Shown here one piece after another: positions 1,171-20,713 of a stretch of 20,713 nt of DNA. The stretch is from IMG/VR virus record IMGVR_UViG_2537562021_000003, positions 1-20,713 of that record; one strand, written 5' to 3'. A program made the translations under genes and the position numbers. This DNA is from a virus (lineage: Duplodnaviria > Heunggongvirae > Uroviricota > Caudoviricetes). Below the pieces are notes generated by a model that did no database searches, was not told the origin of the DNA, and was given only the letters and a program-made list of their open reading frames with translations. Every line of letters starts with the position of its first letter. The first letter of the stretch is position 1.

Positions 1171-1192
1171 TTTTGTGTACTTACATTATAAG

Positions 1193-2224: not shown

Positions 2225-2225
2225 A

Positions 2226-2858: not shown

Positions 2859-2870
2859 TTTTTAATCCTA

Positions 2871-2922: not shown

Positions 2923-2977
2923 AAGTAAAACGAGATAAAACGACGTAAACCAAACCTTAATCGGGAGATACTGCACT

Positions 2978-3220: not shown

Positions 3221-3252
3221 GTTCAATTATGAGAACTTTCTAAGGGGGTAGC

Positions 3253-3762: not shown

Positions 3763-3769
3763 GGTGCTT

Positions 3770-4275: not shown

Positions 4276-4342
4276 CCAACTAATGAAATTAATGGCGTAA
4301 ACCCGCCGGGCATCCCTTTATCTAAATTCAGGAGAATTGATT

Positions 4343-4576: not shown

Positions 4577-4803
4577 TGGCTGATGCAATGGATCTCGTAC
4601 AGCAGCGCGTTGAAGAAGAACGCCAGCGTCATATCCGTGCTGCCCGCGCCAAAACGCCGGGCGTGTCCCGCGTGCTTTGCGTTGAGTGTGAAGCGCCAAT
4701 TCCGCCAGCACGCCGCCGTGCCATTCCGGGGGTGCAGCTTTGCATTACCTGTCAGGAAATCGCAGAGCTGAAAGGCAAACATTACAACGGAGGTGCTGTA
4801 TGA
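4576..4803 (+). CDS. TraR/DksA-family C4 zinc-finger protein
   Basis: 75 aa with CVEC...17 aa...CITC; SD AGGAG at 4563..4567. Confidence 0.7.
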   Translation: MADAMDLVQQRVEEERQRHIRAARAKTPGVSRVLCVECEAPIPPARRRAIPGVQLCITCQEIAELKGKHYNGGAV

Positions 4804-5657
4804 GCACCATCCTGAAATGGGCGGGAAATAAAACCGCCATTATGTCCGAACTGAAAAAACACCTTCCTGCTGGCCCGCGACTGGTTGAACCTTTCGCGGG
4901 TTCCTGTGCTGTGATGATGGAGACGGATTACCCCAGCTATCTGGTTGCGGATATTAATCCTGATTTAATCAACCTCTATAAAAAGGTTGCTGCTGATTGT
5001 GAATCGTTTATATCTCGCGCTAGAGTTTTATTTGAGATCGCAAACAGGGAGGTGGCTTATTACAACATAAGGCAGGAGTTTAATTACTCCACTGAAATTA
5101 CTGATTTCATGAAAGCGGTATATTTCCTGTATCTCAATCGTCACGGTTACCGTGGTTTATGTCGCTATAACAAGAGCGGGCATTTCAACATTCCCTACGG
5201 TAATTATAAAAATCCGTATTTCCCTGAAAAAGAAATTCGCGCATTTGCAGAAAAGGCCCAGCGAGCAACGTTTATCTGCGCCAGCTTTGATGAAACGCTG
5301 GCGATCTTGAAGGCGGGGGATGTGGTGTATTGCGATCCGCCGTATGACGGTACGTTTTCCGGCTATCACACTGATGGTTTCACTGAAGATGACCAGTATC
5401 ACCTGGCATCTGTTCTTGAACATCGGTCATCAGAAGGACATCCGGTCATTGTTTCTAACAGTGACACATCCCTGATCCGTTCGCTGTATCGCAATTTTAC
5501 TCACCACTACATCAAGGCAAAACGCAGCATCGGTGTGGCAGCTGGCGAGGGTAAATCAGCAACAGAAATCATTGCTGTTTCCGGGCCGCGCTGCTGGGTG
5601 GGATTTGATTATTCGCGTGGCGTGGATAGTTCTGCCGTGTACGGAGTACGTGCATGA
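4800..5657 (+). CDS. dam: DNA adenine methyltransferase (Dam-like, orphan)
   Basis: [17 protein letters not shown] and the DPPY motif in [11 protein letters not shown] at 4800 with SD GGAGGTG; ATGA overlaps with the neighbours on both sides. The track's longer ORF starts at 4740. Confidence 0.85.
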
Positions 5658-8068
5658 GCCATGCCGATATGAACAACTGCTGCGGCTTTAACGAGGCTGC
5701 CGCATCGTTCTCATGGAACAGCCCGAAAAAGGCCATTAACCCTTATCTGGACCCGGCGGAAGTTGCGCCGGTTTCTGCGCTTTCAAACCTGATCACTCTG
5801 TACGCTGCCGATAACGAGCAGGAACAGCTGCGCCGCGAGGCACTGAGTGATCAGGTCTGGGAGCGTTATTTCTTTAATGAATCCCGTGATCCTGTCCAGC
5901 GCGAAATGGAGCAGGATAAGCTCATTAGTCGGGCAAAGCTGGCGCATGAGCAGCAGCGTTTTAATCCAGATATGGTCATTCTGGCGGACGTCAATGCCCA
6001 GCCTTCCCATATCAGCAAGCCGCTGATGCAACGTATTGAATACTTCAGCAGCCTGGGCAGGCCAAAGGCTTATTCCCGCTATTTGCGTGAGACGATTAAG
6101 CCATGTCTGGAACGACTGGAGCATGTACGCGACAGTCAGCTATCCGCTTCTTTTCGCTTTATGGCAAGCCATGAAGGGCTGGATGGCCTGCTTATCCTGC
6201 CTGAAATGAGTCAGGATCAGGTGAAGCGCCTGTCTACCCTTGTCGCTGCGCATATGAGCATGTGCCTTGATGCAGCTTGTGGTGATTTGTATGCCACCGA
6301 TGACGTTAAGCCAGAAGAAATCCGCAAGACATGGGAAAAGGTGGCAGCGGAAACCCTGCGTCTGGATGTTATCCCGCCTGCGTTTGAGCAACTCCGTCGG
6401 AAAAGAAACCGCCGTAAACCCGTGCCCTATGAACTCATTCCGGGTTCGCTGGCGCGTATGTTGTGCGCTGACTGGTGGTACCGGAAATTATGGAAGATGC
6501 GTTGCGAATGGCGGGAAGAGCAGTTGCGCGCTGTCTGCCTGGTCAGCAAAAAAGCATCTCCTTATGTCAGCTATGAAGCCGTGATGCATAAACGTGAGCA
6601 GCGCCGTAAGTCGCTGGAGTTTTTCCGTTCTCATGAACTGGTGAACGAAGACGGCGACACGCTGGACATGGAGGATGTGGTAAACGCCAGCAGCAGCAAC
6701 CCTGCGCATCGCCGCAATGAGATGATGGCCTGTGTTAAAGGTCTGGAACTTATCGCGGAAATGCGCGGTGACTGCGCCGTTTTCTACACCATCACCTGTC
6801 CGTCACGTTTCCATTCCACGCTAAATAACGGCAGACCCAACCCGAACTGGACAAATGCGACGGTAAGACAAAGCAGTGATTATTTGGTCGGCATGTTTGC
6901 TGCATTTCGTAAGGCGATGCACAAAGCCGGATTGCGCTGGTATGGCGTGCGGGTGGCTGAGCCGCATCATGACGGTACAGTTCACTGGCACCTGTTGTGT
7001 TTTATGCGCAAAAAAGACCGCCGCGCCATCACTGCATTACTGCGTAAGTTTGCCATCCGTGAAGACCGCGAGGAGCTGGGCAATAACACGGGGCCGCGCT
7101 TTAAGTCTGAGTTGATTAACCCGCGCAAAGGAACGCCGACAAGCTACATCGCGAAATATATCAGTAAGAACATTGACGGGCGTGGTCTGGCTGGCGAGAT
7201 CAGCAAGGAAACGGGTAAATCCCTGCGTGATAACGCTGAATACGTGAATGCCTGGGCGTCTCTGCATCGTGTTCAGCAATTCCGCTTCTTTGGCATTCCG
7301 GGGCGTCAGGCTTACCGTGAACTGCGATTGCTGGCTGGTCAGGCGGCAAGGCAACAGGGTGACAAAAAAGCAGGTGCGCCGGTACTGGATAACCCGCGCC
7401 TTGATGCAATCCTGGCTGCTGCTGATGCTGGTTGTTTTGCCACCTACATCATGAAGCAGGGCGGCGTACTGGTTCCCCGTAAATATCACCTCATCAGAAC
7501 TGCTTATGAAATCAACGAAGAGCCGACCGCCTATGGCGATCACGGCATTCGTATTTATGGCATCTGGTCACCTATTGCAGAGGGCAAGATCTGCACTCAT
7601 GCCGTGAAGTGGAAAATGGTTCGTAAGGCCGTTGACGTTCAGGAGGCGGCAGCCGACCAGGGCGCTTGCGCCCCTTGGACTCGTGGCAATAACTGTCCCC
7701 TTGCTGAAAATTTGAACCAACAGGAGAAAGATAAATCAGCTGATGGGGACCCCAGAACGGACTTTACCCGCATGGATGACAAGGAGTTGCACGATTACCT
7801 GCACAGTATGAACAAAAAGGAGCGCCGGGAACTGGCTGCAAGGTTACGTCTGGTGAAACCGAAACGGCGTAGAGACTACAAACAGCGAATTACAGACCAT
7901 CAACGACAGCAGCTCGTCTATGAACTGAAATCCAGAGGATTTGATGGCAGCGAGAAAGAGGTCGATTTACTCCTTCGCGGCGGCAGTATTCCGTCAGGAG
8001 CAGGCCTGCGTATCTTCTATCGGAACCAGCGTTTGCAGGAAGATGATAAGTGGCGGAACCTGTATTAA
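5654..8068 (+). CDS. A: Replication initiation endonuclease, P2 gene A / 186 RepA family
   Basis: 804 aa; [22 protein letters not shown] and YIAKYISK match the HUH/tyrosine rolling-circle signatures of gpA. Confidence 0.85.
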
Positions 8069-8160
8069 TTACGCTGGTTAACAATTCGTGCTCTTAATAA
8101 TACCAGGCATATCAGGCTGATAAGCGTAAAAAAACGTTTTACATCAGTAAGATTATTATA

Positions 8161-8180
8161 TACTGTAAATATAAACAGTG
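8161..8180. promoter_or_regulatory. LexA (SOS) box
   Basis: TACTGTAAATATAAACAGTG: CTGT-n8-ACAG with an AT-rich spacer, 44 nt upstream of the ATG at 8222. Confidence 0.65.
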
Positions 8181-8221
8181 GTTATACATACAGTGTTGCG
8201 TGTGGTGTCATAGGAGGAAAG

Positions 8222-8410
8222 ATGCAGGACTATTTTTTGGAGTCTTTGAAGCTCCAGCGCATTGATTTTTTTCTTAAGCTTGTAGCGGCTAGTGAGTGTA
8301 GTGATGAAGAGAAGGGGCTGGCTCTGCAGTGGGTTTCTGAATTGACTGATGAACTCATGGCAAAAATCAGAAGCCACGAATACAACCGCTCAATGGATGT
8401 CATCAGCTGA
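8222..8410 (+). CDS. Small SOS-controlled protein, candidate antirepressor N-terminal part (Tum-like by position)
   Basis: 62 aa with strong SD AGGAGG at 8212..8217; its stop overlaps the SD of the DinI-like gene. Confidence 0.55.
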   Translation: MQDYFLESLKLQRIDFFLKLVAASECSDEEKGLALQWVSELTDELMAKIRSHEYNRSMDVIS

Positions 8411-8420
8411 GGTGACTTTT

Positions 8421-8654
8421 ATGCGCATTGAAATAATGATCGATAAAGAGCAGAAGATTAGCCAGTCTACCTTGGACGCCCTTGAATCCGAGCTTTACCG
8501 CAATCTGCGCCCCCTGTATCCCAAAACGGTAATCCGTATCCGTAAAGGTAGCTCTAACGGTGTGGAACTGACCGGACTGCAACTGGACGAAGAAAGAAAA
8601 CAAGTGATGAAAATTATGCAGAAGGTGTGGGAAGACGACAGCTGGCTGCATTGA
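8421..8654 (+). CDS. DinI-family protein
   Basis: 77 aa; MRIEIMIDKEQ...IRKGSSNGVELTGL...VMKIMQKVWEDDSW parallels E. coli DinI as I recall it. SD GAGGTG at 8409..8414. Confidence 0.75.
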   Translation: MRIEIMIDKEQKISQSTLDALESELYRNLRPLYPKTVIRIRKGSSNGVELTGLQLDEERKQVMKIMQKVWEDDSWLH

Positions 8655-8707
8655 TTTTGTCAATAGACGCTTGTTTTTACTAATCAAAAAGGGTTACATA
8701 TGAGTGA

Positions 8708-8741
8708 GAGGCGATGTCAATCAGATATCGCCTTGTTTTTT
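8708..8741 (+). terminator. Candidate intrinsic terminator after the DinI-like gene
   Basis: Stem AGGCGAT (8709..8715) / ATCGCCT (8727..8733) then TTGTTTTTT; the loop is long (11 nt), so weak. Confidence 0.4.
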
Positions 8742-8767
8742 GTCAAGAAAAGAATAATAGGCTAAAA

Positions 8768-9445
8768 ATGAAAATTAATAATGTAGCGTTACCAATATCT
8801 CTTGCTGTAATCCTAACTGGTTGCGTGCCACATGCTTCTAACCGAAATATCACTGCTATTGAAGTGGTGAAGCCTGCTATTGGGCAAAGTGCTACCGCCT
8901 ACATGGGCGATCCCATTATCACATCTGCTACTGGATTTAAAACGGACGTACTAGAACTTGGTGCGGCTAATGGTGCATTGTCTTCTATCGCTGCTGGTAC
9001 ATATTGCAGTGAGGGGAATGGAATTTACCGCAATTATCATAACCCTCAAGCTGTTGCGTTAAAAAATCTCTATGGGCAAATCGGTAACTATGTTGATTAT
9101 GTTAGTTACGATGCTGCAAAAAATGAGATATCACCGCCAAATGGTACTTCTTATACTGCATCAGAAATTTCTATCAAACGTGTTCCTGATGGGCTGTGTC
9201 GAGTTAGTAACTCATTGGTTAAGACTATCGAATACAATGGAAATGCAGGCGGTGTAATGAAGTTCACCTATCGTGAATTTGCAAACGATATGGCTCGTGC
9301 AGCATTTACAACAGATTTTTCTGTAGATTCTAAGGGAAGTGACGTTATCGCTTACAAAGGTGCCAAGTTCAAAGTGAACAAGGCTGATAACTCGTCTATT
9401 TCTTATACAATTATTTCTGGCTTTGACAAGGCTGTCACGTTCTAG
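8768..9445 (+). CDS. Lipoprotein of unknown function (cargo)
   Basis: MKINNVALPISLAVILTGC is a signal peptide with lipobox LTGC; AT-rich codon usage. The track's upstream start at 8714 lies inside the terminator hairpin. Confidence 0.65.
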   Translation: MKINNVALPISLAVILTGCVPHASNRNITAIEVVKPAIGQSATAYMGDPIITSATGFKTDVLELGAANGALSSIAAGTYCSEGNGIYRNYHNPQAVALKNLYGQIGNYVDYVSYDAAKNEISPPNGTSYTASEISIKRVPDGLCRVSNSLVKTIEYNGNAGGVMKFTYREFANDMARAAFTTDFSVDSKGSDVIAYKGAKFKVNKADNSSISYTIISGFDKAVTF

Positions 9446-9548
9446 GTTTCACGCTTACTGAGTATGTTACGATTTTGCACATTCTGCATAAACGCGCATG
9501 TCTATGCTGCATGAGATCGCATGATCGTTTGAGGATCTTTTGTGTTAA

Positions 9549-9574
9549 GGCCCGCCAGTTCTGGCGGGCTTTTG
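9549..9574 (+). terminator. Intrinsic terminator downstream of the lipoprotein gene
   Basis: GCCCGCCAG / CTGGCGGGC 9-bp inverted repeat followed by TTTT. Confidence 0.6.
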
Positions 9575-9618
9575 CGTAGATCATGCAGGTGCATGAAAAC
9601 CACTACATAAAGCGGGCA

Positions 9619-9637
9619 GGCGTGGCGGGGATACGAG
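9619..9637. other. cos-like packaging site (P2/186-type cohesive-end sequence)
   Basis: GGCGTGGCGGGGATACGAG: the first 13 nt match the 186 cohesive end as I recall it (GGCGTGGCGGGGAAAGCAT). GC-rich patch between accessory genes and the portal gene. Confidence 0.45.
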
Positions 9638-9864
9638 CGCGCGCCGCGGGTTGAAATAGTAAAATTCACTTAGCCTCAGGCCCGCTGATGGTTTTCTTCT
9701 GAAAGGGAGGGCGCGTTTTTGTGCAATCTTGTTTGAAGGGATTTAAATAAATGTTGAATGTGTTCCGGAGTTGGCTGTAGATTTAGTGTTCTGCCACAAG
9801 TTGCAGTGATAGGTAGCAAACCTTTAAAAGGTTCTGCTATTGTTTCATTAAAGATTTATAGTCT

Positions 9865-10464
9865 TTGTCCGAAAATGACATTAAAGTAGTCGCCTTTAAT
9901 GTCGTAAGCATGAAGGACAGAGAATTGAACTTAGAGCAGATTGCCAGTCAAAGTATAAGTAACCTTCAGTTTCTCCTCGATACTTTGAAGATGCCGTTGG
10001 CTGTTGGTCCAATCAGTGATGAAGACTATGTGATCCTGACCACAGGATACGCTCAGCTAGAATGGGATTATGGTTTTTCTCGGTTTGGCAATCGAAGTGA
10101 TAAGTTTGAATTTTGTTTGAAGCTCCTTGCGGGGCCACTTAGGCATATCCCTTCTGGCGCAGCTATGTGCACCTTTGACGAGGACGCTGGAGTCATAGAG
10201 ATCCATTTTGTGGAATCTTTTGTGAAAGATGATGACGTAGAGCACCCTCTTTACGGCAACATGTTCATGGTTACATTGTGGGCGGTATATCTTTTTGGTA
10301 GCGCGGTTGGGTGTCAAGAGATTCGGATCCCTGAAGCCCTGAATCAAAAAGTTGCTGACCACTATAAAAAATTTGGTTTTAAAGGTGATATAAGCTTGCT
10401 TTCGGCACCTTTTGCTACAATAACTGATGTAGTAAGACGCTACATTACTTCTAAGAAACAGTAG
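9865..10464 (+). CDS. Hypothetical cargo protein; C-terminus possibly GNAT-like
   Basis: 199-aa ORF from TTG 9865 (or 184 aa from ATG 9910); no strong SD for either. IRIPEALNQKVADHYKKFGF resembles GNAT motif B; no clear motif A. Confidence 0.5.
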   Translation: MSENDIKVVAFNVVSMKDRELNLEQIASQSISNLQFLLDTLKMPLAVGPISDEDYVILTTGYAQLEWDYGFSRFGNRSDKFEFCLKLLAGPLRHIPSGAAMCTFDEDAGVIEIHFVESFVKDDDVEHPLYGNMFMVTLWAVYLFGSAVGCQEIRIPEALNQKVADHYKKFGFKGDISLLSAPFATITDVVRRYITSKKQ

Positions 10465-10474
10465 ATAAATTTTT

Positions 10475-10496
10475 GCGCAGTGCTACAATGCTGCGC
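10475..10496 (+). promoter_or_regulatory. Extended -10 promoter (TGCTACAAT) inside a 6-bp-arm inverted repeat
   Basis: GCGCAG (10475..10480), TGCTACAATG, CTGCGC (10491..10496), about 50 nt upstream of the 59-aa ORF. Confidence 0.45.
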
Positions 10497-10543
10497 CAAA
10501 CATCCACCACCGGATGATGAGGCTTGACCTCTAAGAGGAAATC

Positions 10544-10723
10544 ATGACTATGACGCATAGTGACAAGAAAGCTCAGAAGCATTACTCAGTATCTGATGTT
10601 TTCAGCCGTATGGGCGTCGCGATGGAAGAACTACTTCAAGCGGCCCCACATATGATGCAGGACTGCAAATTTGAAGGAAATGAGCTGCATGGTAAGCTCA
10701 AAGAAAAGCAGAAAGCTGCTTAA
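10544..10723 (+). CDS. Small hypothetical protein (59 aa), not in the ORF track
   Basis: My own translation: MTMTHSDKKAQKHYSVSDVFSRMGVAMEELLQAAPHMMQDCKFEGNELHGKLKEKQKAA. SD AAGAGGA at 10533..10539; terminator follows. Confidence 0.5.
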   Translation: MTMTHSDKKAQKHYSVSDVFSRMGVAMEELLQAAPHMMQDCKFEGNELHGKLKEKQKAA

Positions 10724-10747
10724 TTCCATGAAATGCGTTTTGCATGA

Positions 10748-10771
10748 AGCCCGGTAATACCGGGCTTTTTT
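10748..10771 (+). terminator. Intrinsic terminator between the convergent 59-aa ORF and Q
   Basis: AGCCCGG TAATA CCGGGCT followed by TTTTTT. Confidence 0.7.
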
Positions 10772-10778
10772 ATGCTTG

Positions 10779-11816
10779 CTAGTCAGTATTAAGCTCATAT
10801 GGATTGAATCGGACTACCTCTTCACCAAGCCATTCATTTAGCTCCAGCAATCGCTTTTGTAACGGTACTATTTCGTTTCTTGTGAAGACGCGACTGGCCT
10901 TTTCCACATCCCCAAAACCGCCGGTATTGTTGGGAATGATACCCATCATTTGCGGCGGCACACGATGCGCCGCCATCATGTCGTCCCGGCTCACGTTCTT
11001 GATATTCAGGAACTCATCCTTCGCCGCCACTTCTGACAACGGGATAATCTGAAGCCCATCCTTTTTGCCGTTAGGCGAGTACATAAACAGGTTACGGAAG
11101 TTACCAGGACCTTTGGCACTTTTCATTGCGTTGCGGAGGTTGTTCACATCCTCCTGGTTCTGCGCGGCGTCGGTCATGTACATGATGAAGCCCGCATGGC
11201 TGCCGTTAATGTAATACTTCCGGCGGAACAGCGTGGCGGACTCGTTGAGCAGGGCTGACGGAATGGCAGAAAGATAACCGGGCAGGCCGTAGATCTCCTG
11301 GTTGATGTCCGGCTCCATCAGATGAAAAATGCTGCCTTTCGTGAACTGATACGGCTGGGTTGTCATACCGTATTGCACAAACCAGTAGGTATCCAGGTCT
11401 AACCCGCGTCGGGTGTATTTTGCCAGAGCAGGCTCAAGGGCTATAACTTCACCGAAGCGGTTCGTGCGTTTCTCCAGGTAGGCGTTACCAAAAACCAGAA
11501 AGTCCTGTACAAAACGCGAAAAAGCCTGCTGGCTGAGCAGCGGGTGAGGGATGTAGGTGCTGGTCAGAATGTTGCACTTCACTGCAATCGGTGAGCTATG
11601 ATGTATGGCGGCGCGGAAGGTTCGCGCCAGTCCGTCGAAACTCACAGGCAGCTCATACCAACGATCCATCTGTACGCATTCCACATAGTCCAGCAGTTCG
11701 CGGCGGTCCAGAACAGGAACGGGATCACCGAAGCTGAATGCTTCGGCTGAAGTCTGGCTTTTATGCTGGATCTGTTTCGTCGACGCAGCGCGGTTCTTCT
11801 TACTCTTTCCCATCAA
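10779..11816 (-). CDS. Q: Portal protein, P2 gpQ family
   Basis: 345 aa (P2 Q is about the same size), directly followed on the same strand by the terminase ORF. Confidence 0.8.
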   Translation of the reverse strand: MMGKSKKNRAASTKQIQHKSQTSAEAFSFGDPVPVLDRRELLDYVECVQMDRWYELPVSFDGLARTFRAAIHHSSPIAVKCNILTSTYIPHPLLSQQAFSRFVQDFLVFGNAYLEKRTNRFGEVIALEPALAKYTRRGLDLDTYWFVQYGMTTQPYQFTKGSIFHLMEPDINQEIYGLPGYLSAIPSALLNESATLFRRKYYINGSHAGFIMYMTDAAQNQEDVNNLRNAMKSAKGPGNFRNLFMYSPNGKKDGLQIIPLSEVAAKDEFLNIKNVSRDDMMAAHRVPPQMMGIIPNNTGGFGDVEKASRVFTRNEIVPLQKRLLELNEWLGEEVVRFNPYELNTD

Positions 11817-13000
11817 AAAATCTCCACAATATTGCTGGTATTGGCGGACTCGCCCTGCAGCGGTTCGTTAAACAGTGCGTGCATTGTTGCCCAGGCCAGA
11901 TCGGCATGGCTGGCTTCTTCGCTGCGGCTGGCTTCATAGGTCGGGCGGTTGCCACTGGCAGTGGTAGCGCGACGGATTGCCATAAATGACTGCGCAATGT
12001 CGGTGTGCCCGGCGTCAAACTCCAGGCGGCGGTGGCTGATAATGTCGTAGGCCTTGAGTACCAGGGCGTTTTTAACGTTGGGGTTGTAGACAAACTCCCG
12101 GACGGCAGGAAAAAACGCTTTCACGTTCTCGTAAACCCCGTGACCGACGCCGGTCGAGTCGATGCCGATATAGGTCACGTTATACTGTTCGGTCAGTTTT
12201 TTGATGGCGTCAGCCTGGGCGCGAAAGTCCATTCCGCGCCACTGGTGACGCTCAAGAATGCGGAACTTGCCGCCCGGCACGGCTGGCGGAGCCACCACCA
12301 CGCATCCGGCGCTGTCACCGTTTTGCGTACCTTTTGCCGGGTCATAACCGATCCACACTTCGCGCCAGCCAAACGGGCGCAGCGCCAGTGCATGAAAGTC
12401 GGTCCAGACTTCCCAGCTGTCCACCATGCACGCCTGCAGCTCGCTGAGCGGGAACACGGACGCGAGATCGTCCACGAACTCACACATCAGCAGGTTCTGG
12501 TATTCGTCCGGGCTGTACTCCATGCGCAACTGGTCAAGGTCGAACAGGTTACAGCCGCCGCGCACCGCATCTTCCACAGTGACTATCTGGCGGTACTGCC
12601 CGTCTGCGCACAGCAGGCCGGGGGCCAGATTGCTGTGGGACAGGTCGATGTCCACCTTATCGGCTTTGTTGCGCCCTCGGTTGAACAGCGCACCGGACCA
12701 GAACGGATAAGCACTGTGTGTCAGGCTGGATGGCGTGGAAAAATAGGTTTGTCGCCATTTTTTGTGAATAGCCATACCGGAAGCCACTTTGCGCAGCTCC
12801 TGGAATTTCGGTATCCAGAAATATTCATCCAGATACAGGTTGCCGTGGTAACTCTGGGCCGTGCGGGCATTGGTGCCGAGGAAGTACAGCGTGGCCCCGT
12901 TAGGAAGCACCATCGGATCGCCTTTCAGCTCCACCTCCACTTCTTTGGCGAAGTCGATGATGTACTGCTTAAAGACGTGGGCCTGAGCCTTGCTGGCGGA
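11813..13000 (-). pseudogene. P: Terminase large subunit (gpP) remnant lacking its N-terminal part
   Basis: About 395 codons of protein-like reading frame with a Walker-B-like LYLDEYFWI but no Walker A; a full gpP (about 590 aa) would have to start near 13585, which is occupied by FII/E coding sequence. Confidence 0.7.
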
Positions 13001-13256
13001 AAGGAAAATCTGGTTACGCCCGGTTACCGGAGAAGTGCAGGCCGTGGAGCTTGTGGTGCGTGGACGTCACAAAGAAGTGGATTCCGGCGAGTGGAAGACG
13101 GGCGAAAGCAACACCACCAAAGTGACCAGTACCAACAGCTACGCGAAGCTGACCATCAATGGTGAGGTGCTCTATGAAGTGGACCTTATCAACATGGTGG
13201 AAATTGTGGACGGTGTGGACCTGATGGAAGCGCACCGCAACGCCCTCGGCCTCTGA
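12987..13256 (+). pseudogene. Tail tube (gpFII) C-terminal fragment
   Basis: ...TGEVQAVELVVRGRHKEVDSGEWKTGE...INGEVLYEVDLINMVEIVDGVDLMEAHRNALGL resembles the FII C-terminus; in-frame stop at 12984..12986 and no N-terminal half. Confidence 0.55.
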
Positions 13257-13310
13257 TATATCTGAACGGCGCGGGATACCGCGCCAGAACCCAATTTACA
13301 GGACAGCAAA

Positions 13311-13613
13311 ATGAACGATAAGCAGACTGAAAAGACCATTCAACTGGATACCCCCATCAAGCGCGGTAAAACAGAAATCACCGAAATTGTGCTGCGTAAA
13401 CCGCAGTCCGGTGCGCTGCGCGGTACACGCCTGCAGGCCATTATGGATATGGATGTAAACGCGATGATGACCGTGATCCCCCGCATCTCCAGTCCGGCAC
13501 TGACTGCACAGGAAATTGCAGAGATGGACTCGGCAGATCTCACTGCCATGTCGGTTGAGGTTGTCACTTTTTTGTTGAAGAAGTCGGTGCTTGCAGGTTT
13601 ACCGACAGCCTGA
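13311..13613 (+). CDS. E: Tail assembly chaperone gpE
   Basis: 100 aa directly upstream of the tape measure gene; heptamer T_TTT_TTG at 13568..13574 near its 3' end. Confidence 0.8.
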   Translation: MNDKQTEKTIQLDTPIKRGKTEITEIVLRKPQSGALRGTRLQAIMDMDVNAMMTVIPRISSPALTAQEIAEMDSADLTAMSVEVVTFLLKKSVLAGLPTA

Positions 13614-13747
13614 CGGTTGATGATCTGGTGGCAGATATCGCCACCATTTTTCACTGGCCGCCATCCGTTACTGACGTTATGCCGCTGACCGAAGTGCTGG
13701 AATGGCGGTATAAAGCGATTCAGAGAAGCGGGGCCAACGATGAGTGA
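13311..13747 (+). CDS. gpE+E' product of a -1 programmed frameshift
   Basis: After the slip at 13568..13574 the -1 frame stays open to TGA at 13745..13747 (...MPLTEVLEWRYKAIQRSGANDE), overlapping the T start. Confidence 0.6.
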
Positions 13748-16700
13748 TAATAACCTGCGCCTTCAGGTCATTCTTAATGCGGTTGACAAACTCACCCGCC
13801 CATTCCGTGCTGCACAGGCCAGTTCGAAAGAGCTGGCTGGCGCAATTCAGAATACCCGAAACAGCCTCAAAGAACTGAATAAGCAGGCTGGCAGAATTGA
13901 TGAATTTCGCAAGACGCGCTCGCAACTAGCCATAACAGCCAACAACCTGAACGCAGCCCGCGAAGAGGCGGCAAAACTCGCCACACAATTTGCTGCCACT
14001 AACAGGCCAACCGCCGCGCAGGCAAAGTTATTCAGTCAGGCCAAAACACGAGTGCAGGAACTTCAGCAGACCTATAACGGCTTGTTGGGGGCGGTCCAGA
14101 GACAACGTCAGGCACTTAAAGAATCAGGGATTGATACCAGACAACTCAGTAGTGCCCAGCGAGAACTTAAGAAAAATGCTGAAGAAACAAGGCAGGCACT
14201 GGAGGGCCAGCAAAAAGCACTTAAACGTCTGGGTGAACAACAGGCACGGATGAACGCTGCCAGAGAACAATACTCAAGACGGCTTGAAGTGCGCGATCGC
14301 ATCGCAGGAGCCGGAGCCACTACCACGGCTGCAGGGCTGGCAATGGGTGCGCCAGTGATGGCGGCAGTAAAAAGCTATACCAGCATGGAAGATGCCATGA
14401 AAGGTGTGGCAAAGCAGGTCAATGGTCTGCGTGACGATAATGGCAACCGCACTGCACGTTTTTATGAAATGCAGGATGCCATCAAGGCTGCCAGCGAACA
14501 GTTGCCGATGGAAAACGGTGCGGTGGACTTCGCTGCACTGGTTGAAGGTGGTGCGCGCATGAACGTCGCAAACCCTGACGACAGCTGGGAAGACCAGAAA
14601 CGTGACCTGCTGGCCTTCGCCAGTACGGCAGCAAAGGCGGCAACAGCCTTTGAGCTGCCAGCGGATGAACTGTCAGAAAGTCTGGGGAAAATCGCCCAGC
14701 TCTACAAAATACCTACCCGCAATATTGAACAGCTCGGCGATGCGCTGAACTATCTGGATGATAACGCCATGTCGAAAGGGGCGGACATCATTGATGTGAT
14801 GCAACGTCTGGGCGGTGTGGCTGACCGTCTGGATTATCGTAAAGCGGCGGCACTGGGTTCCACCTTTCTGACACTGGGCGCTGCGCCGGAGGTTGCAGCC
14901 AGTGCAGCAAACGCGATGGTGCGTGAATTGTCCATTGCCACCATGCAAAGCAAGAGTTTCTTTGAAGGGATGAATCTGCTGAAACTCAATCCTGAAGTGA
15001 TTGAAAAGCAGATGACGAAGGATGCGATGGGAACTATCCAGCGTGTGCTGGAGAAGGTGAACGCACTGCCGCAGGACAAGCGTCTGTCTGCCATGACCAT
15101 GTTGTTTGGTAAAGAGTTTGGTGATGACGCGGCGAAACTGGCAAACAACCTGCCGGAACTGCAGCGCCAGCTAAAACTGACAGCGGGCAATGATGCGCTC
15201 GGTTCCATGCAGAAAGAATCCGACATCAACAAAGACTCACTTTCTGCTCAGTGGTTGCTGGTCAAAACCGGAGCGCAGAACACCTTCAGCAGCCTGGGCG
15301 AAACGCTGCGCCAGCCGCTGATGGATATTCTGTACACGGTGAAAAGCATCATGGGGGCGTTGCGCCGCTGGGTGGAAGCTAACCCGGAACTGACAGGCAC
15401 ACTGATGAAAGTAGCGGCTGTTGTGGCTGCGGTTACCGTAGGCCTCGGCACCTTAGCGGTGACGCTGGCTGCAGTGCTGGGGCCGCTGGCAGTCATCCGT
15501 CTGGGATTCTCTGTGCTGGGTATCAAAACGTTACCTTCCGTTACGGCAGCAGTAACACGAACCAGCAGCGCGTTGTCCTGGTTAGCTGGCGCTCCACTGG
15601 CACTGCTGCGACGCGGGCTTGCTTCATCGGGCAACGCAGCGGGTTTACTTACTGCGCCGTTGTCGTCTTTGCGCCGTACGGCATCACTGACGGGAAATGT
15701 CCTGAAAACTGTAGCAGGTGCGCCGGTTGCACTTTTGCGGTCTGGATTATCCGGTTTACGTGCTGTTGCTGTGATGTTTATGAATCCTCTGGCGGTACTG
15801 CGCGGTGGACTGGTCGCCGCAGGCACGGTGCTGCGAGTACTGGCATCTGGTCCACTGGCGATGCTGCGCGTTGCCCTGTATGCCGTATCTGGTCTGTTAG
15901 GTACTCTGCTCAGTCCGATAGGTCTTGTGGTTACTGCACTGGCAGGCGTGGCGCTGGTTGTCTGGAAATACTGGCAACCCATCACCGCATTTCTCGCTGG
16001 TGTGGTGGAAGGATTCAAAGCGGCGGCAGGTCCCATCAGTGCAGCATTCGAACCACTTAAGCCTGTGTTTCAGTGGATTGGCGACAAAGTGCAGGCGTTG
16101 TGGGGCTGGTTTACTGATCTGCTGACGCCCGTTAAGTCGACCTCTGCCGAACTGCAGAGCGCAGCGGCAATGGGGCGACGATTTGGGGAGGCACTGGCGG
16201 AAGGGCTGAATATGGTCATGCATCCGCTGGACTCCCTGAAATCCGGCGTTTCCTGGTTGCTGGAGAAACTCGGCATTGTCAGTAAAGAGGCTGCAAAGGC
16301 GAAACTGCCGGAAAGCGTGACGCGTCAGCAACCTGCGACGGTGAATGCAGACGGTAAAGTGATGATGCCATCGGGTGGTTTTCCGTCATGGGGATATGGC
16401 TTTGCGGGGATGTATGACAGCGGCGGCTATATCCCGCGCGGGCAGTTCGGCATTGTCGGTGAAAACGGGCCGGAAATTGTCAACGGTCCGGCAAACGTGA
16501 CCAGCCGGAGAAATACCGCTGCACTGGCTGCGGTTGTCGCCGGAATGATGGGAGTTGCTGCCGCGCCAGCAGAGCTTCCACCGTTGCATCCTTTGGCGCT
16601 TCCCGCGAAAGGCGGTGAAGCGATGGTGAGTCGCGTAGCTGCTGTGCCGCCCGTTCACCGGATTGAGGCACCGACGCAGATCATCATCCAGACGCAGCCA

Positions 16701-16817
16701 GGACAAAGTGCGCAGGATATTGCGCGGGAGGTGGCACGCCAGCTTGATGAACGTGAACGCAGGCTGAAGGCAAAAGCCAGGAGTAACTACAGCGATCAGG
16801 GGGGATACGACGCATGA
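13740..16817 (+). CDS. T: Tail tape measure protein gpT
   Basis: 1025 aa, helical N-terminus, Ala/Gly/Leu-rich middle, at the T position after E/E'. Confidence 0.85.
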   Translation: MSDNNLRLQVILNAVDKLTRPFRAAQASSKELAGAIQNTRNSLKELNKQAGRIDEFRKTRSQLAITANNLNAAREEAAKLATQFAATNRPTAAQAKLFSQAKTRVQELQQTYNGLLGAVQRQRQALKESGIDTRQLSSAQRELKKNAEETRQALEGQQKALKRLGEQQARMNAAREQYSRRLEVRDRIAGAGATTTAAGLAMGAPVMAAVKSYTSMEDAMKGVAKQVNGLRDDNGNRTARFYEMQDAIKAASEQLPMENGAVDFAALVEGGARMNVANPDDSWEDQKRDLLAFASTAAKAATAFELPADELSESLGKIAQLYKIPTRNIEQLGDALNYLDDNAMSKGADIIDVMQRLGGVADRLDYRKAAALGSTFLTLGAAPEVAASAANAMVRELSIATMQSKSFFEGMNLLKLNPEVIEKQMTKDAMGTIQRVLEKVNALPQDKRLSAMTMLFGKEFGDDAAKLANNLPELQRQLKLTAGNDALGSMQKESDINKDSLSAQWLLVKTGAQNTFSSLGETLRQPLMDILYTVKSIMGALRRWVEANPELTGTLMKVAAVVAAVTVGLGTLAVTLAAVLGPLAVIRLGFSVLGIKTLPSVTAAVTRTSSALSWLAGAPLALLRRGLASSGNAAGLLTAPLSSLRRTASLTGNVLKTVAGAPVALLRSGLSGLRAVAVMFMNPLAVLRGGLVAAGTVLRVLASGPLAMLRVALYAVSGLLGTLLSPIGLVVTALAGVALVVWKYWQPITAFLAGVVEGFKAAAGPISAAFEPLKPVFQWIGDKVQALWGWFTDLLTPVKSTSAELQSAAAMGRRFGEALAEGLNMVMHPLDSLKSGVSWLLEKLGIVSKEAAKAKLPESVTRQQPATVNADGKVMMPSGGFPSWGYGFAGMYDSGGYIPRGQFGIVGENGPEIVNGPANVTSRRNTAALAAVVAGMMGVAAAPAELPPLHPLALPAKGGEAMVSRVAAVPPVHRIEAPTQIIIQTQPGQSAQDIAREVARQLDERERRLKAKARSNYSDQGGYDA

Positions 16818-17299
16818 TGATGGTGCTGGGATTGTACGTGTTTATGCTGCGCACCGTTCCGTATCAGGAACTGCAGTATCAACGCAGCTGGCGACATGCG
16901 GCAAACAGCCGGGTAAACCGTCGTCCGTCCACGCAGTTTCTGGGACCGGACAACGACATGCTGACGCTTTCCGGTGTTCTTATGCCGGAGATAACGGGCG
17001 GCAGGCTGTCGTTGCTGGCTCTGGAGCAGATGGCAGAACAGGGAAAAGCATGGCCCCTGATTGAAGGCAGCGGCACGATTTACGGCATGTATGTGATTGA
17101 GGGACTGAATCAGACTAAAACGGAGTTCTTCCGCGACGGTATGCCGCGCAGGATTGAGTTCACCCTGTCGCTAAAACGCGTGGATGAATCCCTGCCCGAT
17201 ATGTTCGGTGATCTCAGTGCGCAACTGAATAATCTGCAGGGAACGGCAACATCTGCCTTAAGCGATATCAGTAAAACGGTGGGAGGGCTGCTGTCGTGA
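16814..17299 (+). CDS. U: Tail protein gpU
   Basis: 161 aa, start overlaps the T stop; P2 order T-U-D. Confidence 0.75.
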   Translation: MMMVLGLYVFMLRTVPYQELQYQRSWRHAANSRVNRRPSTQFLGPDNDMLTLSGVLMPEITGGRLSLLALEQMAEQGKAWPLIEGSGTIYGMYVIEGLNQTKTEFFRDGMPRRIEFTLSLKRVDESLPDMFGDLSAQLNNLQGTATSALSDISKTVGGLLS

Positions 17300-18396
17300 A
17301 TTTCAGCTCTGAACTGCTTAACAAAGGCAACAAAACTCCGGCATTCAGCATCAGTATTGAAGGCAGGGATATCACCACTGTGCTGGACAACCGCCTGATG
17401 GGGCTGACGCTGACGGATAACCGGGGCTTTGAAGCGGACCAGCTTGATCTGGAGCTGGACGACGCCGATGGAAAAATCGTGCTGCCGCGCCGTGGTGCGG
17501 TCATTACGCTGGCGCTGGGCTGGAAGGGGCAGCCGCTTTTCCCGAAAGGGGCATTCACGGTGGACGAGATTGAACACACTGGCGCACCGGACCGCCTGAC
17601 TATCCGGGCGCGAAGTGCTGATTTTCGTGAAACGCTGAATACCCGTCGTGAAAAGTCGTGGCACAAGACCACCGTTGGGGAAGTGGTGAAGGAAATAGCT
17701 GCGCGGCACAAACTGAAGATGGCATTGGGTAAAGACCTGTCAGATAAACCCGTGGAACATATAGACCAGACCAATGAGAGTGACGGCAGTTTTCTGATGC
17801 GGCTGGCGCGACAGTACGGTGCCATCGCGTCGGTGAAAAATGGCAATCTGTTATTCATCCGGCAGGGACAGGGCAAAAGCGCCAGCGGTAAACCTCTGCC
17901 GGTGATCACTATCACACGCAAGGACGGCGACAGTCACCGCTTTACCCTGGCAGATCGCGGAGCCTATACGGGCGTAATTGCCAGTTGGTTGCATACCCGC
18001 GAACCCGCGAAGAAAGAAAGCACCACGGTGAAGCGTAAGCGCAGGACCGCAAAGCAGAAGAAAGAGCCGGAAGCGAAGCAGGGCGATTACCTGGTGGGTA
18101 CGGATGAAAACGTGCTGGTACTTAATCGCACTTATGCCAACCGGAGCAACGCTGAACGGGCAGCGAAAATGCAGTGGGAACGCCTGCAACGCGGCGTTGC
18201 GTCATTCTCGCTACAACTGGCGGAAGGTCGGGCAGATCTCTACACGGAAATGCCAGTGAAAGTCAGTGGCTTTAAACAGCCGATAGATGATGCGGAATGG
18301 ACCATTACGACTCTGACACATACCGTCAGCCCGGATAACGGTTTTACAACCAGTATTGAACTCGAAGTGAATATTGATGATCTTGAAATGGAATAA
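17296..18396 (+). CDS. D: Tail protein gpD
   Basis: 366 aa, start overlaps the U stop; followed by ogr as in P2. Confidence 0.75.
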   Translation: MNFSSELLNKGNKTPAFSISIEGRDITTVLDNRLMGLTLTDNRGFEADQLDLELDDADGKIVLPRRGAVITLALGWKGQPLFPKGAFTVDEIEHTGAPDRLTIRARSADFRETLNTRREKSWHKTTVGEVVKEIAARHKLKMALGKDLSDKPVEHIDQTNESDGSFLMRLARQYGAIASVKNGNLLFIRQGQGKSASGKPLPVITITRKDGDSHRFTLADRGAYTGVIASWLHTREPAKKESTTVKRKRRTAKQKKEPEAKQGDYLVGTDENVLVLNRTYANRSNAERAAKMQWERLQRGVASFSLQLAEGRADLYTEMPVKVSGFKQPIDDAEWTITTLTHTVSPDNGFTTSIELEVNIDDLEME

Positions 18397-18464
18397 AGTG
18401 TTCTCAATATTGATATTTTGTGTATCATTACAATGATTCTGATAGCAAAGGTAGGGATCTGGAT

Positions 18465-18683
18465 ATGATGAATTGTCCGAAGTGTGGTCATGCGGCGCAC
18501 ACAAGGAGCAGTTTTCAAGTAACAGAAAGCACCAAAGAGCGTTACTGCCAGTGCCAAAATATTAACTGCGGGAGCACTTTTGTTACCCATGAAACAGTGG
18601 TCCGGTTTATTGTGACACCTGCATTGATTGCTACAGCCCCTCCACATCCATTACCAGGTGGTCAGGGGCATATGAATTTTTGA
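18465..18683 (+). CDS. ogr: Ogr/Delta-family zinc-finger late transcription activator
   Basis: MMNCPKCGHAAHTRSS...TKERYCQCQNINCGSTFVTHETV...PHPLPGGQ parallels P2 Ogr (about 72 aa, CxxC...CxxxxC). Upstream part of the track ORF is non-coding. Confidence 0.85.
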   Translation: MMNCPKCGHAAHTRSSFQVTESTKERYCQCQNINCGSTFVTHETVVRFIVTPALIATAPPHPLPGGQGHMNF

Positions 18684-18690
18684 GAAAGAG

Positions 18691-18714
18691 AACCTGCTAC
18701 GGCAGGGTTTTATT
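18691..18714. terminator. Hairpin between convergent ogr and the WYL/BRCT-like gene
   Basis: CCTGC TACG GCAGG followed by TTTTATT on the + strand. Confidence 0.45.
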
Positions 18715-19192: not shown

Positions 19193-19315
19193 GTGAAACC
19201 TCTTTGCATGATTTCAAGATGGCGACAGGCAAGATGGACGAAAAAGTCTGTCGCCATTTTGCCGCCACTACCAAAGAAAAAGGGGCTACGCTTTCACGTA
19301 ACCCCTTGATTTATT

Positions 19316-19360
19316 TGGTGGAGCTGGCGGGAGTTGAACCCGCGTCCGAAATTCCTACAT
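19316..19360 (-). other. Attachment-site core: 3'-terminal 45 nt of ssrA (tmRNA), not a complete gene
   Basis: TGGTGGAGCTGGCGGGAGTTGAACCCGCGTCCGAAATTCCTACAT is the reverse complement of the E. coli tmRNA 3' end (recalled); the match stops at 19361 where AT-rich phage sequence begins. Confidence 0.75.
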
Positions 19361-19486
19361 ACTATTTTTAATACAATGAAAACAGTAGTTTGCGTTTAAA
19401 AACAGTGTGTTACTATTATCCTGTGTTTATCCGTTTTACGCATTTTTAATGCTCTGCCGCCAAGTTGTCGCCAATTTTAGGCTAAC

Positions 19487-20500
19487 TTACGGTTGGCTGT
19501 TTTTAACATTCAAAAGAAAGTTCTTCCAAATTATTAGCAGTGAATTTTTATCTAAATCAATCTTATGAGGTTTGATGTTTTTTCCTTCATATATATTTTT
19601 ATAATAGCAATCGATAGCAAAATGAATAGTTAAATTATCTGGATGTATGGCTAGTAGACCTCGGTCAAGCAAGGCATGAAGGGTAGGTTCAAGAGGTATT
19701 CCATTGTTGGTTCTATGGTTTTGGGTCTGAGAAAATGGTTCAAGGTGACATGCCTGCAATACTGGGAGGTTGTAACCTGTTATTGCGCATACATTTGAGA
19801 AGTTTTTTAGAACCCTTTTTTTAAAGTCAACCTGTTCGCCAGAGTCACGCTGTAATACTGTTTGCAGATGAGTATTGCCTTTTGTGACAACTGGTATACT
19901 AATTGTATCAGAGGGATTTATAAATATGACTGGCGGTAGAGTAGGTTCTAGAATGTTTTTTTGTCCAAGAAACTGCCTTGATAATAATTCATCTTTAGCG
20001 ATTTTTATTGCTTCACTTTTTGTTAATGAAAGGCATGCCAGATTATACGCATCTACATTGAAATATTTAGTTTCCCTGTTTAGCGTAATGGATGATATTT
20101 TTTTATCGTGTTCTGCTATTGGTATACCTTTTGTGACAGGATGCGAAATGCTTTCAAGCAGTGTTGTATTGCCATTTATTTCTTTATTAAACAATGAGGT
20201 AGGGTGTTCAATCATATTGCTATGCTTGGCGCGATAGTGCTCATATAGGCCATGAGCACTTTTGAAATTTTTCTTGCATATTATACAGCTAACATTTCCC
20301 CCATTAATTTTTTTTGAATTTCTTTTTCTGGATTCAACAAGAGAGTTTGTTAGATCTTCTCTTAGTTTTAATATTCTGAGGTTGGTTGGGTTGTTTCCTC
20401 GTCTATATGGTAAGCTCTCAAGTCTATTTAACTCATTTTTGAGGTGTTGGTACTGTTTACGTGAAATTAAATTAGGTTTCATATTTAAGATTAAGATCAC
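19487..20500 (-). CDS. Second copy of the zinc-finger/HNH-like nuclease gene
   Basis: Identical 337-aa translation to 157..1170. Confidence 0.6.
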   Translation of the reverse strand: MILILNMKPNLISRKQYQHLKNELNRLESLPYRRGNNPTNLRILKLREDLTNSLVESRKRNSKKINGGNVSCIICKKNFKSAHGLYEHYRAKHSNMIEHPTSLFNKEINGNTTLLESISHPVTKGIPIAEHDKKISSITLNRETKYFNVDAYNLACLSLTKSEAIKIAKDELLSRQFLGQKNILEPTLPPVIFINPSDTISIPVVTKGNTHLQTVLQRDSGEQVDFKKRVLKNFSNVCAITGYNLPVLQACHLEPFSQTQNHRTNNGIPLEPTLHALLDRGLLAIHPDNLTIHFAIDCYYKNIYEGKNIKPHKIDLDKNSLLIIWKNFLLNVKNSQP

Positions 20501-20522
20501 TTTTGTGTACTTACATTATAAG

Positions 20523-20713
20523 TTACATGTTATTCGACAAGTATATAAAGTTCAAAGGGTTTTTCGTTACTGCATCTTCCAGATGGTCTGGAGAAAAATG
20601 GGCGTAAATCATCGTCATTTTTATATCGGCATGGCCCAAAATATCGCGCAGTACCAGTATGTTTCCGCCGTTCATCATGAAATGGCTGGCGAATGTATGG
20701 CGTAGAACGTGGG
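20523..20713 (-). CDS. int: Integrase, C-terminal part of a second copy (truncated by window end)
   Basis: Identical to 1193..1383, encoding the catalytic C-terminus. Confidence 0.8.
   Translation of the reverse strand, partial: HVLRHTFASHFMMNGGNILVLRDILGHADIKMTMIYAHFSPDHLEDAVTKNPLNFIYLSNNM

Follow-up and report, generated by a model that had tools for sequence, protein, structure and literature searches.

We find that the window, the whole stretch of 20,713 nucleotides analysed here, is an E. coli phage genome of the P2 type from which one clean deletion has taken about 14 kb, a reading to which we assign a probability of roughly 0.92. The deletion fused the terminase gene P to the tail tube gene FII and removed the head, lysis, sheath, tail-fibre and baseplate genes between them. 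It is a case of ordinary prophage decay, and RefSeq already annotates the two remnants as pseudogenes in a closed E. coli genome.

RESULTS

A single deletion joins P to FII

We compared the window with the phage Cartapus (NC_070909, Peduoviridae, Elveevirus) and with the intact E. coli I3 prophage (NZ_CP195969.1). Both share the gene order of the window and match it on both arms at 94–99.9% DNA identity (94–97% for Cartapus, its annotated cos included), and cos, the attP region, the early region, Q, P and the genes from FII to ogr are common to all three. However, between the N-terminus of P and the N-terminus of FII both intact genomes carry 14.0–14.1 kb that are missing in the window, and they also differ from the window in the cargo found near int and near cos. 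Window positions 10816–13024 align to Cartapus 906–3114 and positions 13025–19473 to Cartapus 17128–23576; the two blocks abut exactly, and therefore 14,013 bp are missing from the window, the corresponding gap against the I3 prophage being 14,137 bp. Together with the 19,330-bp unit of the window, the gap gives 33.3–33.5 kb, the normal genome size.

The missing stretch holds about 24 genes. In both Cartapus and I3 it is annotated with O, N, M, L, X, holin, lysozyme, lysA/B/C, R, S, V, W, J, I, H, G and FI, and it also includes the invertible fibre segment with its Cin/Gin-type invertase. A first-pass annotation made from the letters alone had listed O through FI and the lysis cassette as absent, and all of these genes are indeed found in the missing stretch. 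It had further suggested a comparison with the gene order of intact relatives, and at this point the order in Cartapus and I3 differs from that of the window.

Three-way alignments with a left parent (L003, ...CCCGGTTAGCAGG) and a right parent (L005, ...GACGATACCGGAG), together with megablast end points, place the junction at 13024/13025, with bases 13025–13026 assignable to either parent. The features at the break are the following:

10779..11813, minus strand: portal gene Q, intact, 344 aa (Pfam Phage_portal; PGAP 'phage portal protein' in NZ_CP035822.1)
11813..13024, minus strand: remnant of the terminase large subunit gene P, codons 186–588 of 588 (Pfam; colinear with Cartapus 1903–3114 and I3 4652–5863)
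13024..13026, no strand: deletion junction, CCCGGT/TA/CCGGAG, the TA at 13025–13026 being present in both parents as a 2-nt microhomology
13025..13256, plus strand: remnant of the tail tube gene FII, last 76 codons (96–171 of 171) and stop (Pfam; colinear with Cartapus from 17128 and I3 from 20001)

In about 1,000 E. coli genomes the match to the right arm begins exactly at 13025, and the left-arm matches end at 13024–13026. The junction thus lies within the bracket of 12987..13025 proposed earlier, at its right edge. No repeat flanks it, the shared sequence being just the 2 nt TA, and neither an IS sequence nor an IS end was found at or near it.

Both genes that meet at the break are truncated, next to an intact portal gene (ORF 10779–11816, minus strand, Phage_portal in Pfam) whose protein is identical to that encoded by intact relatives. 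The P remnant covers only profile positions 28–214 of 215 of Terminase_6N, together with Terminase_6C; its start codon and first 185 amino acids are gone, including the Walker-A-like SRQIGAT (aa 166–172). On the other side, ORF 12990–13256 (plus strand) matches only positions 92–165 of 165 of Phage_tube. PGAP calls both remnants pseudogenes in NZ_CP035822.1, as 'terminase large subunit domain-containing protein, missing N-terminus' and 'phage major tail tube protein, missing N-terminus'. Pfam and the alignments to Cartapus and I3 bear out the earlier succession of Q, a P remnant without Walker A, a C-terminal FII fragment and then E, with one correction: the surviving part of the terminase is not its N-terminus, as had been stated, but the C-terminal two thirds. 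The reported fusion holds at the DNA level but not at the protein level, because the two remnants are encoded on opposite strands and meet at their truncated 5' ends, which makes a P/FII chimeric protein impossible. With essential morphogenesis and lysis genes gone relative to close intact relatives and stubs left at the break, the element has the make-up of a defective prophage.

An att-core joint in the window

The outer form of the window is set by two features:

19315..19360, no strand: att core, 46 bp (3' end of ssrA) in attP arrangement, joining the ogr side to the HNH-int side
19331..20713, no strand: exact repeat of window 1–1383, giving a unit length of 19,330 bp (terminal overlap and repeat search, family D1)

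The 46 bases of the core are the overlap of two alignments to the chromosome of E. coli WS4437A-1, in which they are equal at attL and attR, and the window is colinear with the Cartapus genome across them. The window carries no host flanks and represents a 19,330-bp unit with its joint at the att core; this form could be a genuine circle, a tandem copy or a path chosen by the assembler. As it is att-joined and not integrated, the window alone does not show the element as a resident prophage. The earlier description as a prophage needs correction in this respect: the window does not show a prophage between host flanks, but begins and ends with the same 1,383 bases and has its joint on the core.

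The integrated counterpart is found in WS4437A-1. Its ssrA prophage (NZ_CP035822.1, 2247826–2267347) is 99.985% identical to the window over 19,360 bases, with three differing bases at 1384, 8472 and 18707, and lies between attL and attR with host flanks where the window is joined at the core.

Retained genes and their likely state

Further features outside the deleted stretch are kept, the six genes from E to ogr all at full length by Pfam and by PGAP annotation of the identical prophage:

9496..9666, no strand: cos region, holding GGCGTGGCGGGGATACGAG at 9619–9637
13311..13613, plus strand: E (Phage_TAC_7 in Pfam), distal tail
13628..13747, plus strand: E', distal tail
13740..16817, plus strand: T, distal tail
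16814..17299, plus strand: U, distal tail
17296..18396, plus strand: D, distal tail
18465..18683, plus strand: ogr, late control

The cos region was placed by homology to Cartapus: it aligns across both ends of the linear Cartapus genome, the bases 1–59 of which are annotated as a putative cos site. A P2 cos 19-mer used as query gave no match within 3 mismatches. Also retained are the integrase, CI/Apl/CII, Dam, gpA and a LexA-boxed DinI/Tum-like module, so that the earlier claim of preserved immunity, integrase, replication, dam, SOS module, T, U, D and ogr stands by Pfam, PGAP and the alignments. The Pfam families in the window comprise Phage_portal, Terminase_6N/6C, Phage_tube, Phage_TAC_7, PhageMin_Tail, Phage_P2_GpU and Phage_GPD, and PGAP lists in the identical prophage a replication endonuclease (the gpA homologue in Cartapus) and an ogr/Delta-like protein. 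Gene order, gpA initiator and cos place the element among the P2-like temperate phages (Peduoviridae), the head operon itself being deleted. In such phages transcription of Q and P diverges from that of the O..L head operon, the tail genes FI, FII, E, E', T, U and D precede ogr, gpA initiates rolling-circle replication, and cos is adjacent to Q.

The element is unable to encode a capsid, scaffold, small terminase, holin, endolysin, spanins, baseplate, fibres or sheath. We found no ORF for a holin, endolysin, spanin, capsid or complete tail in the window, which therefore does not qualify as inducible and lysis-competent, and in Cartapus and I3 the capsid, lysis and tail genes needed all fall within the deleted interval, in agreement with the earlier statement that neither particles nor lysis can be produced. 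By homology with P2, the promoters of the V and FI operons would have been lost as well, and Q, the P and FII remnants, E, T, U and D would be without any P2-type late promoter. Given this and a strong terminator-like hairpin at 10746–10768, upstream on the plus strand, these genes have probably become silent relics. By contrast, the element has kept integrase, CI, Apl/Cox, CII, Dam, gpA, the DinI/Tum-like module, cos, ogr and its cargo genes intact, from which we predict that it should still repress, excise and replicate; the repression probably extends to superinfecting relatives.

The same junction in other genomes

Is the junction found elsewhere? The closed WS4437A-1 chromosome carries the identical P/FII junction at 100% identity, as do at least two further assemblies (GCA_017761325.1 and GCA_049980305.1), and ssrA/smpB flanks surround the identical element in WS4437A-1 and two draft genomes. 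The deletion architecture was found solely in copies that are at least 99.9% identical. An exact scan with a 33-nt junction pattern gave no match in IMG/VR viral contigs, one-genome-per-species contigs or JGI metagenome contigs, and no record in the PLSDB plasmids spans the junction. The absence from the viral, representative-genome and JGI metagenome collections points to a rare lineage. The deletion is recent, as the arms are 99.9–100% identical to intact relatives and the T protein shares its accession with that of the intact I3 prophage.

Loss of the region as such is more widespread. At least 80% of Q-P-O was covered in only 1,048 of 1,276 matching E. coli records, and as many as about 18% of the complete E. 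coli genomes with this type of prophage are without most of Q-P-O. We catalogued 33 distinct large-deletion junctions in related prophages. The exact 366-aa ORF of the P remnant was found with nine different partners. A deletion hotspot in P was considered and rejected: the end points (I3 5773–5963) are evenly spread between the in-frame ATG codons 144 and 223, and the apparent hotspot is an ascertainment effect, as this is the only zone able to yield a 366-aa ORF. Separately, an 'insertion' of about 700 bp in P of some genomes is in fact an additional gene with a terminase domain, located between P and Q, and its interpretation as a mobile element was dropped.

TA at deletion junctions

The TA dinucleotide lies exactly at the crossover in 21 of the 33 distinct junctions, that of the window included, against a TA frequency of 3.3% (P about 1e-23); the sample derives partly from ORF look-ups, which restrict one end to a zone and leave the dinucleotide free. 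Among right ends taken from complete genomes with no ORF-based selection, four of nine begin with TA. The junction sites share the loose motif S-G-W-T-A; at −2, 13 of the 15 right sites have a G, compared with a background of 31%. End points are also re-used with different partners (I3 19986 four times, 25255–25260 five times, and 12913, 20001 and 5548 twice each); the 20001 site serves both the junction of the window and an unrelated deletion in L028. About a third of the junctions are without TA and show ordinary microhomology of 3–11 nt.

Several sources of the TA preference were tried and discarded. Invertase pseudo-sites have a TT/AA crossover centre and a different sequence, gpA pseudo-origins would follow the P2 nick site CCTCG/GAGTCC, residual IS elements are left at none of the junctions, the hairpin-loop context of junction sites does not differ from that of all TA sites, and Rpn nucleases have no reported sequence specificity. 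In the literature on TA-specific illegitimate recombination and on prophage deletion junctions we found no relevant precedent.

DISCUSSION

Based on the comparison with intact relatives, we conclude that the element is very probably a Cartapus-like temperate phage genome (Peduoviridae, 186-type regulation), from which one recent illegitimate-recombination event deleted about 14.1 kb. The deletion runs from a TA in P codon 185/186 to a TA at FII codon 95/96, thereby taking away the N-terminal ATPase motif of P, the divergent P/O promoter region and all genes from O through FI, and the resulting defective prophage at ssrA would then have been passed on vertically.

Could the assembly, and not the genome, have lost the 14 kb? 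If the assembler had collapsed or mis-joined P to FII, the true genome would be intact, and the window does have an odd structure with 1,383 bp of exact terminal redundancy; moreover, of the three bases that set it apart from the nearest relative, two are T-to-G changes beside G runs, which could be sequencing errors. However, a collapse-prone repeat is absent at the junction, where only 2 nt are shared, and a closed chromosome and at least two independent assemblies show the same junction at 100% identity. The joint is thus reproducible and lies on no repeat, which disposes of the assembly collapse that the first-pass annotation had raised, and we give such an artefact next to no probability. 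It is extremely unlikely, too, that an IS element, or a phage invertase or integrase acting at secondary sites, made the deletion. The deleted block does include a Cin/Gin-type invertase and an invertible segment, and relatives do receive IS hits, e.g. in strain 504239, where an IS66-family element disrupts the portal gene; but the junction bears no IS sequence or end, and its break points resemble neither invertase sites (TTCTCGCATACC-TT-GGTTTGGGAGAA) nor the att core, so that no mark of an IS-, invertase- or integrase-mediated deletion was found.

A different kind of doubt concerns what the 19.3-kb element is. It could be a satellite-like hitcher that depends on a helper, excising and replicating upon SOS induction and being packaged by a co-resident intact P2-like phage, in line with its intact cos, integrase, cox/apl, gpA, replication genes, ogr and LexA-controlled module and with the excised or tandem attP arrangement of the window. 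We regard this as very unlikely. Truncated pseudogene stubs are present and the gene set is not streamlined, Pfam and PADLOC scans of the cargo ORFs revealed no capsid-size or helper-hijack function, and many different deletions of the region exist. The unit of 19.3 kb amounts to about 58% of a P2 head-full and its dimer of 38.7 kb exceeds one, which also counts against packaging. In addition, the confinement of the junction to near-identical copies argues for one recent accident and not for a conserved design, and Pfam and PADLOC showed among the ORFs no P4-like or PICI-like gene set for hijacking a helper, such as capsid-size redirection or helper activation, conserved across diverged members.

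With a deletion in a P2-type genome as our preferred reading, a further point is how the ends were chosen. We speculate that a TA-directed cut-and-join activity, with a transposase-like, recombinase-like or topoisomerase-like enzyme as candidate, made this deletion and recurrently degrades P2-like prophages at preferred sites. The 21 TA junctions, the unselected right ends, the shared motif and the re-used sites speak for such an activity; against it count the discarded sources listed above and the lack of a precedent in the literature searched, about a third of the junctions show microhomology in place of TA, and part of the sample came through look-ups that constrain the zone of one end. We therefore consider this activity possible but doubtful. 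The end points appear non-random, and it is a similarly tentative suggestion that TA-directed cleavage and joining, and not generic microhomology repair, is a major driver of prophage disarming. If the pattern is real and enzyme-driven, it would offer a concrete insight into how bacteria domesticate prophages, and its recurrence with re-used end points across many independent deletions may merit a dedicated study. The deletion itself is of little importance, being that of another disarmed P2-like prophage, and is mainly of use for annotation. With an intact LexA/Tum-type module, integrase and gpA and the lysis genes lost, the element is nevertheless a plausible source of non-lethal excised circles.

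Among known systems, further defective P2-like prophages of E. coli, for instance the remnant in E. coli B/BL21 and a P/D deletion common to five of 60 sampled records, likewise show a large internal loss in the late region while retaining Q and the early region, parts of both P and D, and ogr. They represent independent events with break points other than that of the window, many of them with TA at the junction; most have also lost T, U and D, which the element in the window keeps. Defective P2-like elements that retain defence cargo have been described (bioRxiv 10.64898/2026.02.27.708500). P4-type satellites are similar in that they are small, bear cos and an integrase, are without structural genes and rely on P2-like late proteins. 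P4, however, has its own primase-type replication and the helper-manipulating genes sid, psu and delta, and it contains no P2 gene stubs. The element described here is without these P4-specific traits, and its backbone is that of a P2-like phage minus 14 kb.

Deletion junction and gene content

Aligned to the intact Escherichia phage Cartapus (NC_070909, Peduoviridae), window 10816-13024 corresponds to Cartapus 906-3114 and window 13025-19473 to Cartapus 17128-23576. In the window these two alignments meet with neither gap nor overlap, so that 14,013 bp of Cartapus have no counterpart; measured against E. coli I3 (NZ_CP195969.1), whose prophage is intact, the loss is 14,137 bp. The large internal deletion proposed in the first-pass annotation was thus correctly located, and the complete relatives place its junction at 13024/13025. 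On the terminase side, window 13024 is the last base matched by megablast to phage records, and in ~1,000 E. coli genomes the right-arm match begins at window 13025. The absent block starts with the N-terminus of P and the P/O intergenic region and continues with O, N, M, L and X, the lysis set (holin, endolysin, lysA/B/C), R, S, V, W, J, I, H, G and the invertible fibre segment with its invertase; it ends with FI and codons 1-95 of FII. The genes previously listed as missing all fall within this block, which is present in Cartapus and I3. Aligned with its nearest relatives, …CCCGGTTAGCAGG… for the left arm and …GACGATACCGGAG… for the right arm, the junction reads CCCGGT/TA/CCGGAG, the 2-nt TA being common to both parents.

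We read the gene order from the ORF listing and Pfam scans:

Gene order and features of the window
Early part: HNH-endonuclease cargo gene, then integrase, CI repressor, Apl/Cox-like gene, CII, Fil, small early genes, Dam
157-1170, minus: HNH_2 endonuclease cargo ORF, adjoining int
5654-8068: gpA, after Dam
8163-8178: perfect LexA box (CTGTAAATATAAACAG), directly upstream of the next entry
8222-8654: 62-aa ORF and DinI/Tum-like gene, 3' of the LexA box
8714-9445, 9865-10464 and 10544-10723, all plus: cargo ORFs without annotation, between the DinI-like gene and Q
10779-11813, minus: portal Q
11813-13024, minus: terminase P fragment
13025-13256, plus: tail-tube FII fragment
3' of the FII fragment, plus: E, E', T, U, D, ogr
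18710-19192, minus: 160-aa ORF adjoining att, with weak BRCT and PDC-S48 matches

The LexA box, the 62-aa ORF and the DinI-like gene resemble the module that in phage 186 encodes the SOS-controlled antirepressor Tum. Pfam and PADLOC scans gave no match for the three cargo ORFs between the DinI-like gene and Q. The cargo ORFs occupy the usual P2 variable spots, and in relatives the same spots hold quite different genes, including GmrSD, KAP NTPase, DarT/Macro, TIR and DprA-like genes.

The P stub comprises codons 186-588, so that it is not the N-terminus of the terminase that survives, as the earlier heading had it. The accompanying remark that P lacks Walker A holds: the lost portion includes SRQIGAT (aa 166-172), which we take to be the equivalent of the T4 gp17 Walker A motif SRQLGKT, and the Pfam Terminase_6N match begins only at profile position 28, consistent with this loss. 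Of FII the last 76 codons remain. One on each strand, the two stubs meet at their truncated 5' ends. The P frame, lacking a start codon, reads on through 15 codons of antisense FII; therefore a fusion protein, as the word "fused" had implied, is impossible.

Form of the window

The first 1,383 bases of the window (1-1383) are exactly repeated as its last 1,383 (19331-20713), which gives a unit length of 19,330 bp. Window 1-19360 aligns to the prophage with the identical junction in E. coli WS4437A-1, and window 19315-20713 aligns again to the left end of that prophage; the 46 bp covered twice (19315-19360) are the att core, which corresponds to the 3' end of ssrA. The stretch from ogr to att is colinear with the Cartapus virion genome. 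The window thus has the arrangement of attP and, unlike an integrated prophage, no host flanks. Such a structure can come from an excised circle, from a tandem lysogen or from an assembler that ran on through the att repeat. Tandems do occur: E. coli ET734 (NZ_CP100922.1) has an intact close relative integrated twice in a row at this att site and joined in the same way. Many genes of this tandem are annotated as frameshifted, probably owing to long-read errors. At its start the window has the final 30 nt of the att core, and its end, at 20713, falls one base short of the position corresponding to 1384, where the window has a private G (T in every relative). This coincidence suggests branch points of the assembly graph at both window ends. 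Like the G at 1384, that at 18707 is private to the window, replaces a T and adjoins a G run; sequencing errors or heterogeneity within the sample may explain both.

Reality and spread of the junction

Could the junction be an assembly collapse, the possibility raised in the first-pass annotation? A 651-bp junction probe found one full-length, 100%-identical match among 5,426 complete E. coli genomes, in the closed chromosome of WS4437A-1 (NZ_CP035822.1). There the element lies between an island and ssrA/smpB, differs from the window at 3 of 19,360 bases (99.985% identity), and both stubs are already annotated by PGAP as pseudogenes "missing N-terminus". Exact-protein look-ups recovered the identical architecture in GCA_017761325.1 and GCA_049980305.1, both with smpB-side host flanks; the latter shares the T at window 8472. 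The junction has no flanking repeat, just 2 shared bases. Given this 2-nt overlap, the repeat-free flanks and the recurrence in a closed genome and further assemblies, we reject an assembly artefact. The junction was not found in viral, representative-genome, JGI metagenome or plasmid collections. Both arms match intact relatives at 99.9-100% identity, and a single protein accession covers T of this element and T of the intact I3 prophage. The deletion is real, rare, recent and restricted to one lineage. Taken together, the original observation is confirmed and its interpretation supported, with corrections to the surviving end of P, the protein fusion and the form of the window.

Predicted behaviour of the element

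No genes are left for capsid, scaffold, small terminase, head completion, lysis, baseplate, fibre or sheath, and the terminase remnant is without its ATPase motif. P2 has four late promoters, located upstream of P, O, V and FI. Because all four positions fall within the deleted block, we infer that Q, 'P, 'FII, E, T, U and D (primes marking the 5'-truncated stubs) are deprived of promoters, which is supported by a strong terminator-like hairpin (10746-10768) between the upstream plus-strand cargo genes and the late-gene remnants. Integrase, CI, the Apl/Cox-like gene, CII, Dam, gpA, ogr and the LexA-boxed Tum-like module are intact, as is cos, aligned to the annotated Cartapus cos. As a defective prophage, the element would most likely confer immunity, be derepressed by SOS, excise and replicate, without lysing the cell or forming particles.

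TA at deletion junctions

Among 33 distinct large-deletion junctions of related prophages (loci L002-L041, catalogued against L005, the I3 prophage, over I3 4123-25312), 21 have TA exactly at the crossover, including the window (13025-13026), compared to a TA background of 3.3% in the DNA concerned (binomial P ~1e-23; ~1e-13 with three positions allowed). The right-hand parent sites match a loose S-G-W-T-A, with G at -2 in 13/15 vs 31% of all TA sites. Several sites are re-used: I3 19986 with four different left ends, I3 25255-25260 with five partners, I3 12913 and I3 5548 with two each, and I3 20001, the right-parent site of the window, with two, the other being an unrelated event in locus L028. 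When right ends were taken from complete genomes, with no ORF-based selection, 4/9 distinct ends began with TA, including that of the E. coli B/BL21 remnant. The TA-less junctions display microhomology of the ordinary kind, 3-11 nt long.

The clustering of P-side ends reflects ascertainment, and we do not read it as a hotspot. As causes of the TA we rejected invertase pseudo-sites, whose crossover centre is TT/AA; the gpA nick site, which mismatches in sequence; an IS origin, as no IS remains at any junction; hairpin context, which equals background; and Rpn nucleases, for which no specificity is reported. Our literature search found no published precedent. We regard the pattern as a real statistical signal and keep it apart from the verdict on the window deletion.

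Comparison with related prophages

Is such a deletion common among relatives? The I3 Q-P-O segment is at least 80% covered in only 1,048 of 1,276 matching E. coli records, and by the same measure the FII-to-ogr segment in 964 of 1,339. Among prophages encoding an identical portal, P remnant ORF or FII remnant ORF, we collected many other deletions that join P to V, L, M, O, FI, FII or D, O or H to T, and N to D.

Individual loci showed further rearrangements. E. coli 504239 (NZ_CP025859.1; locus L003, 15373-22356) carries a prophage at the ybjL site with an IS66-family element in the portal gene and its own N/D deletion with an 11-nt filler. A deletion joining P codon ~104 to the D 3' end (I3 6109/25257-25260; locus L039 and search matches H152-H156 and H215-H219) occurred in 5/60 evenly spaced rows of each of two complete-E. 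coli-genome searches and is probably a clonal lineage marker. Between P and Q, E. coli MSB1_9D (L036, 3243-3950) and locus L031 (2107-2832) have an extra gene of ~235-241 aa with a terminase N-domain match, which could be a partial terminase duplication or an accessory gene.

Incomplete, probably defective prophages that still conserve their defence genes are described in a 2026 preprint covering thousands of P2-like elements (bioRxiv 10.64898/2026.02.27.708500). In view of this report and of the frequent deletions in relatives, the window deletion is a correctly described object of an already known kind.
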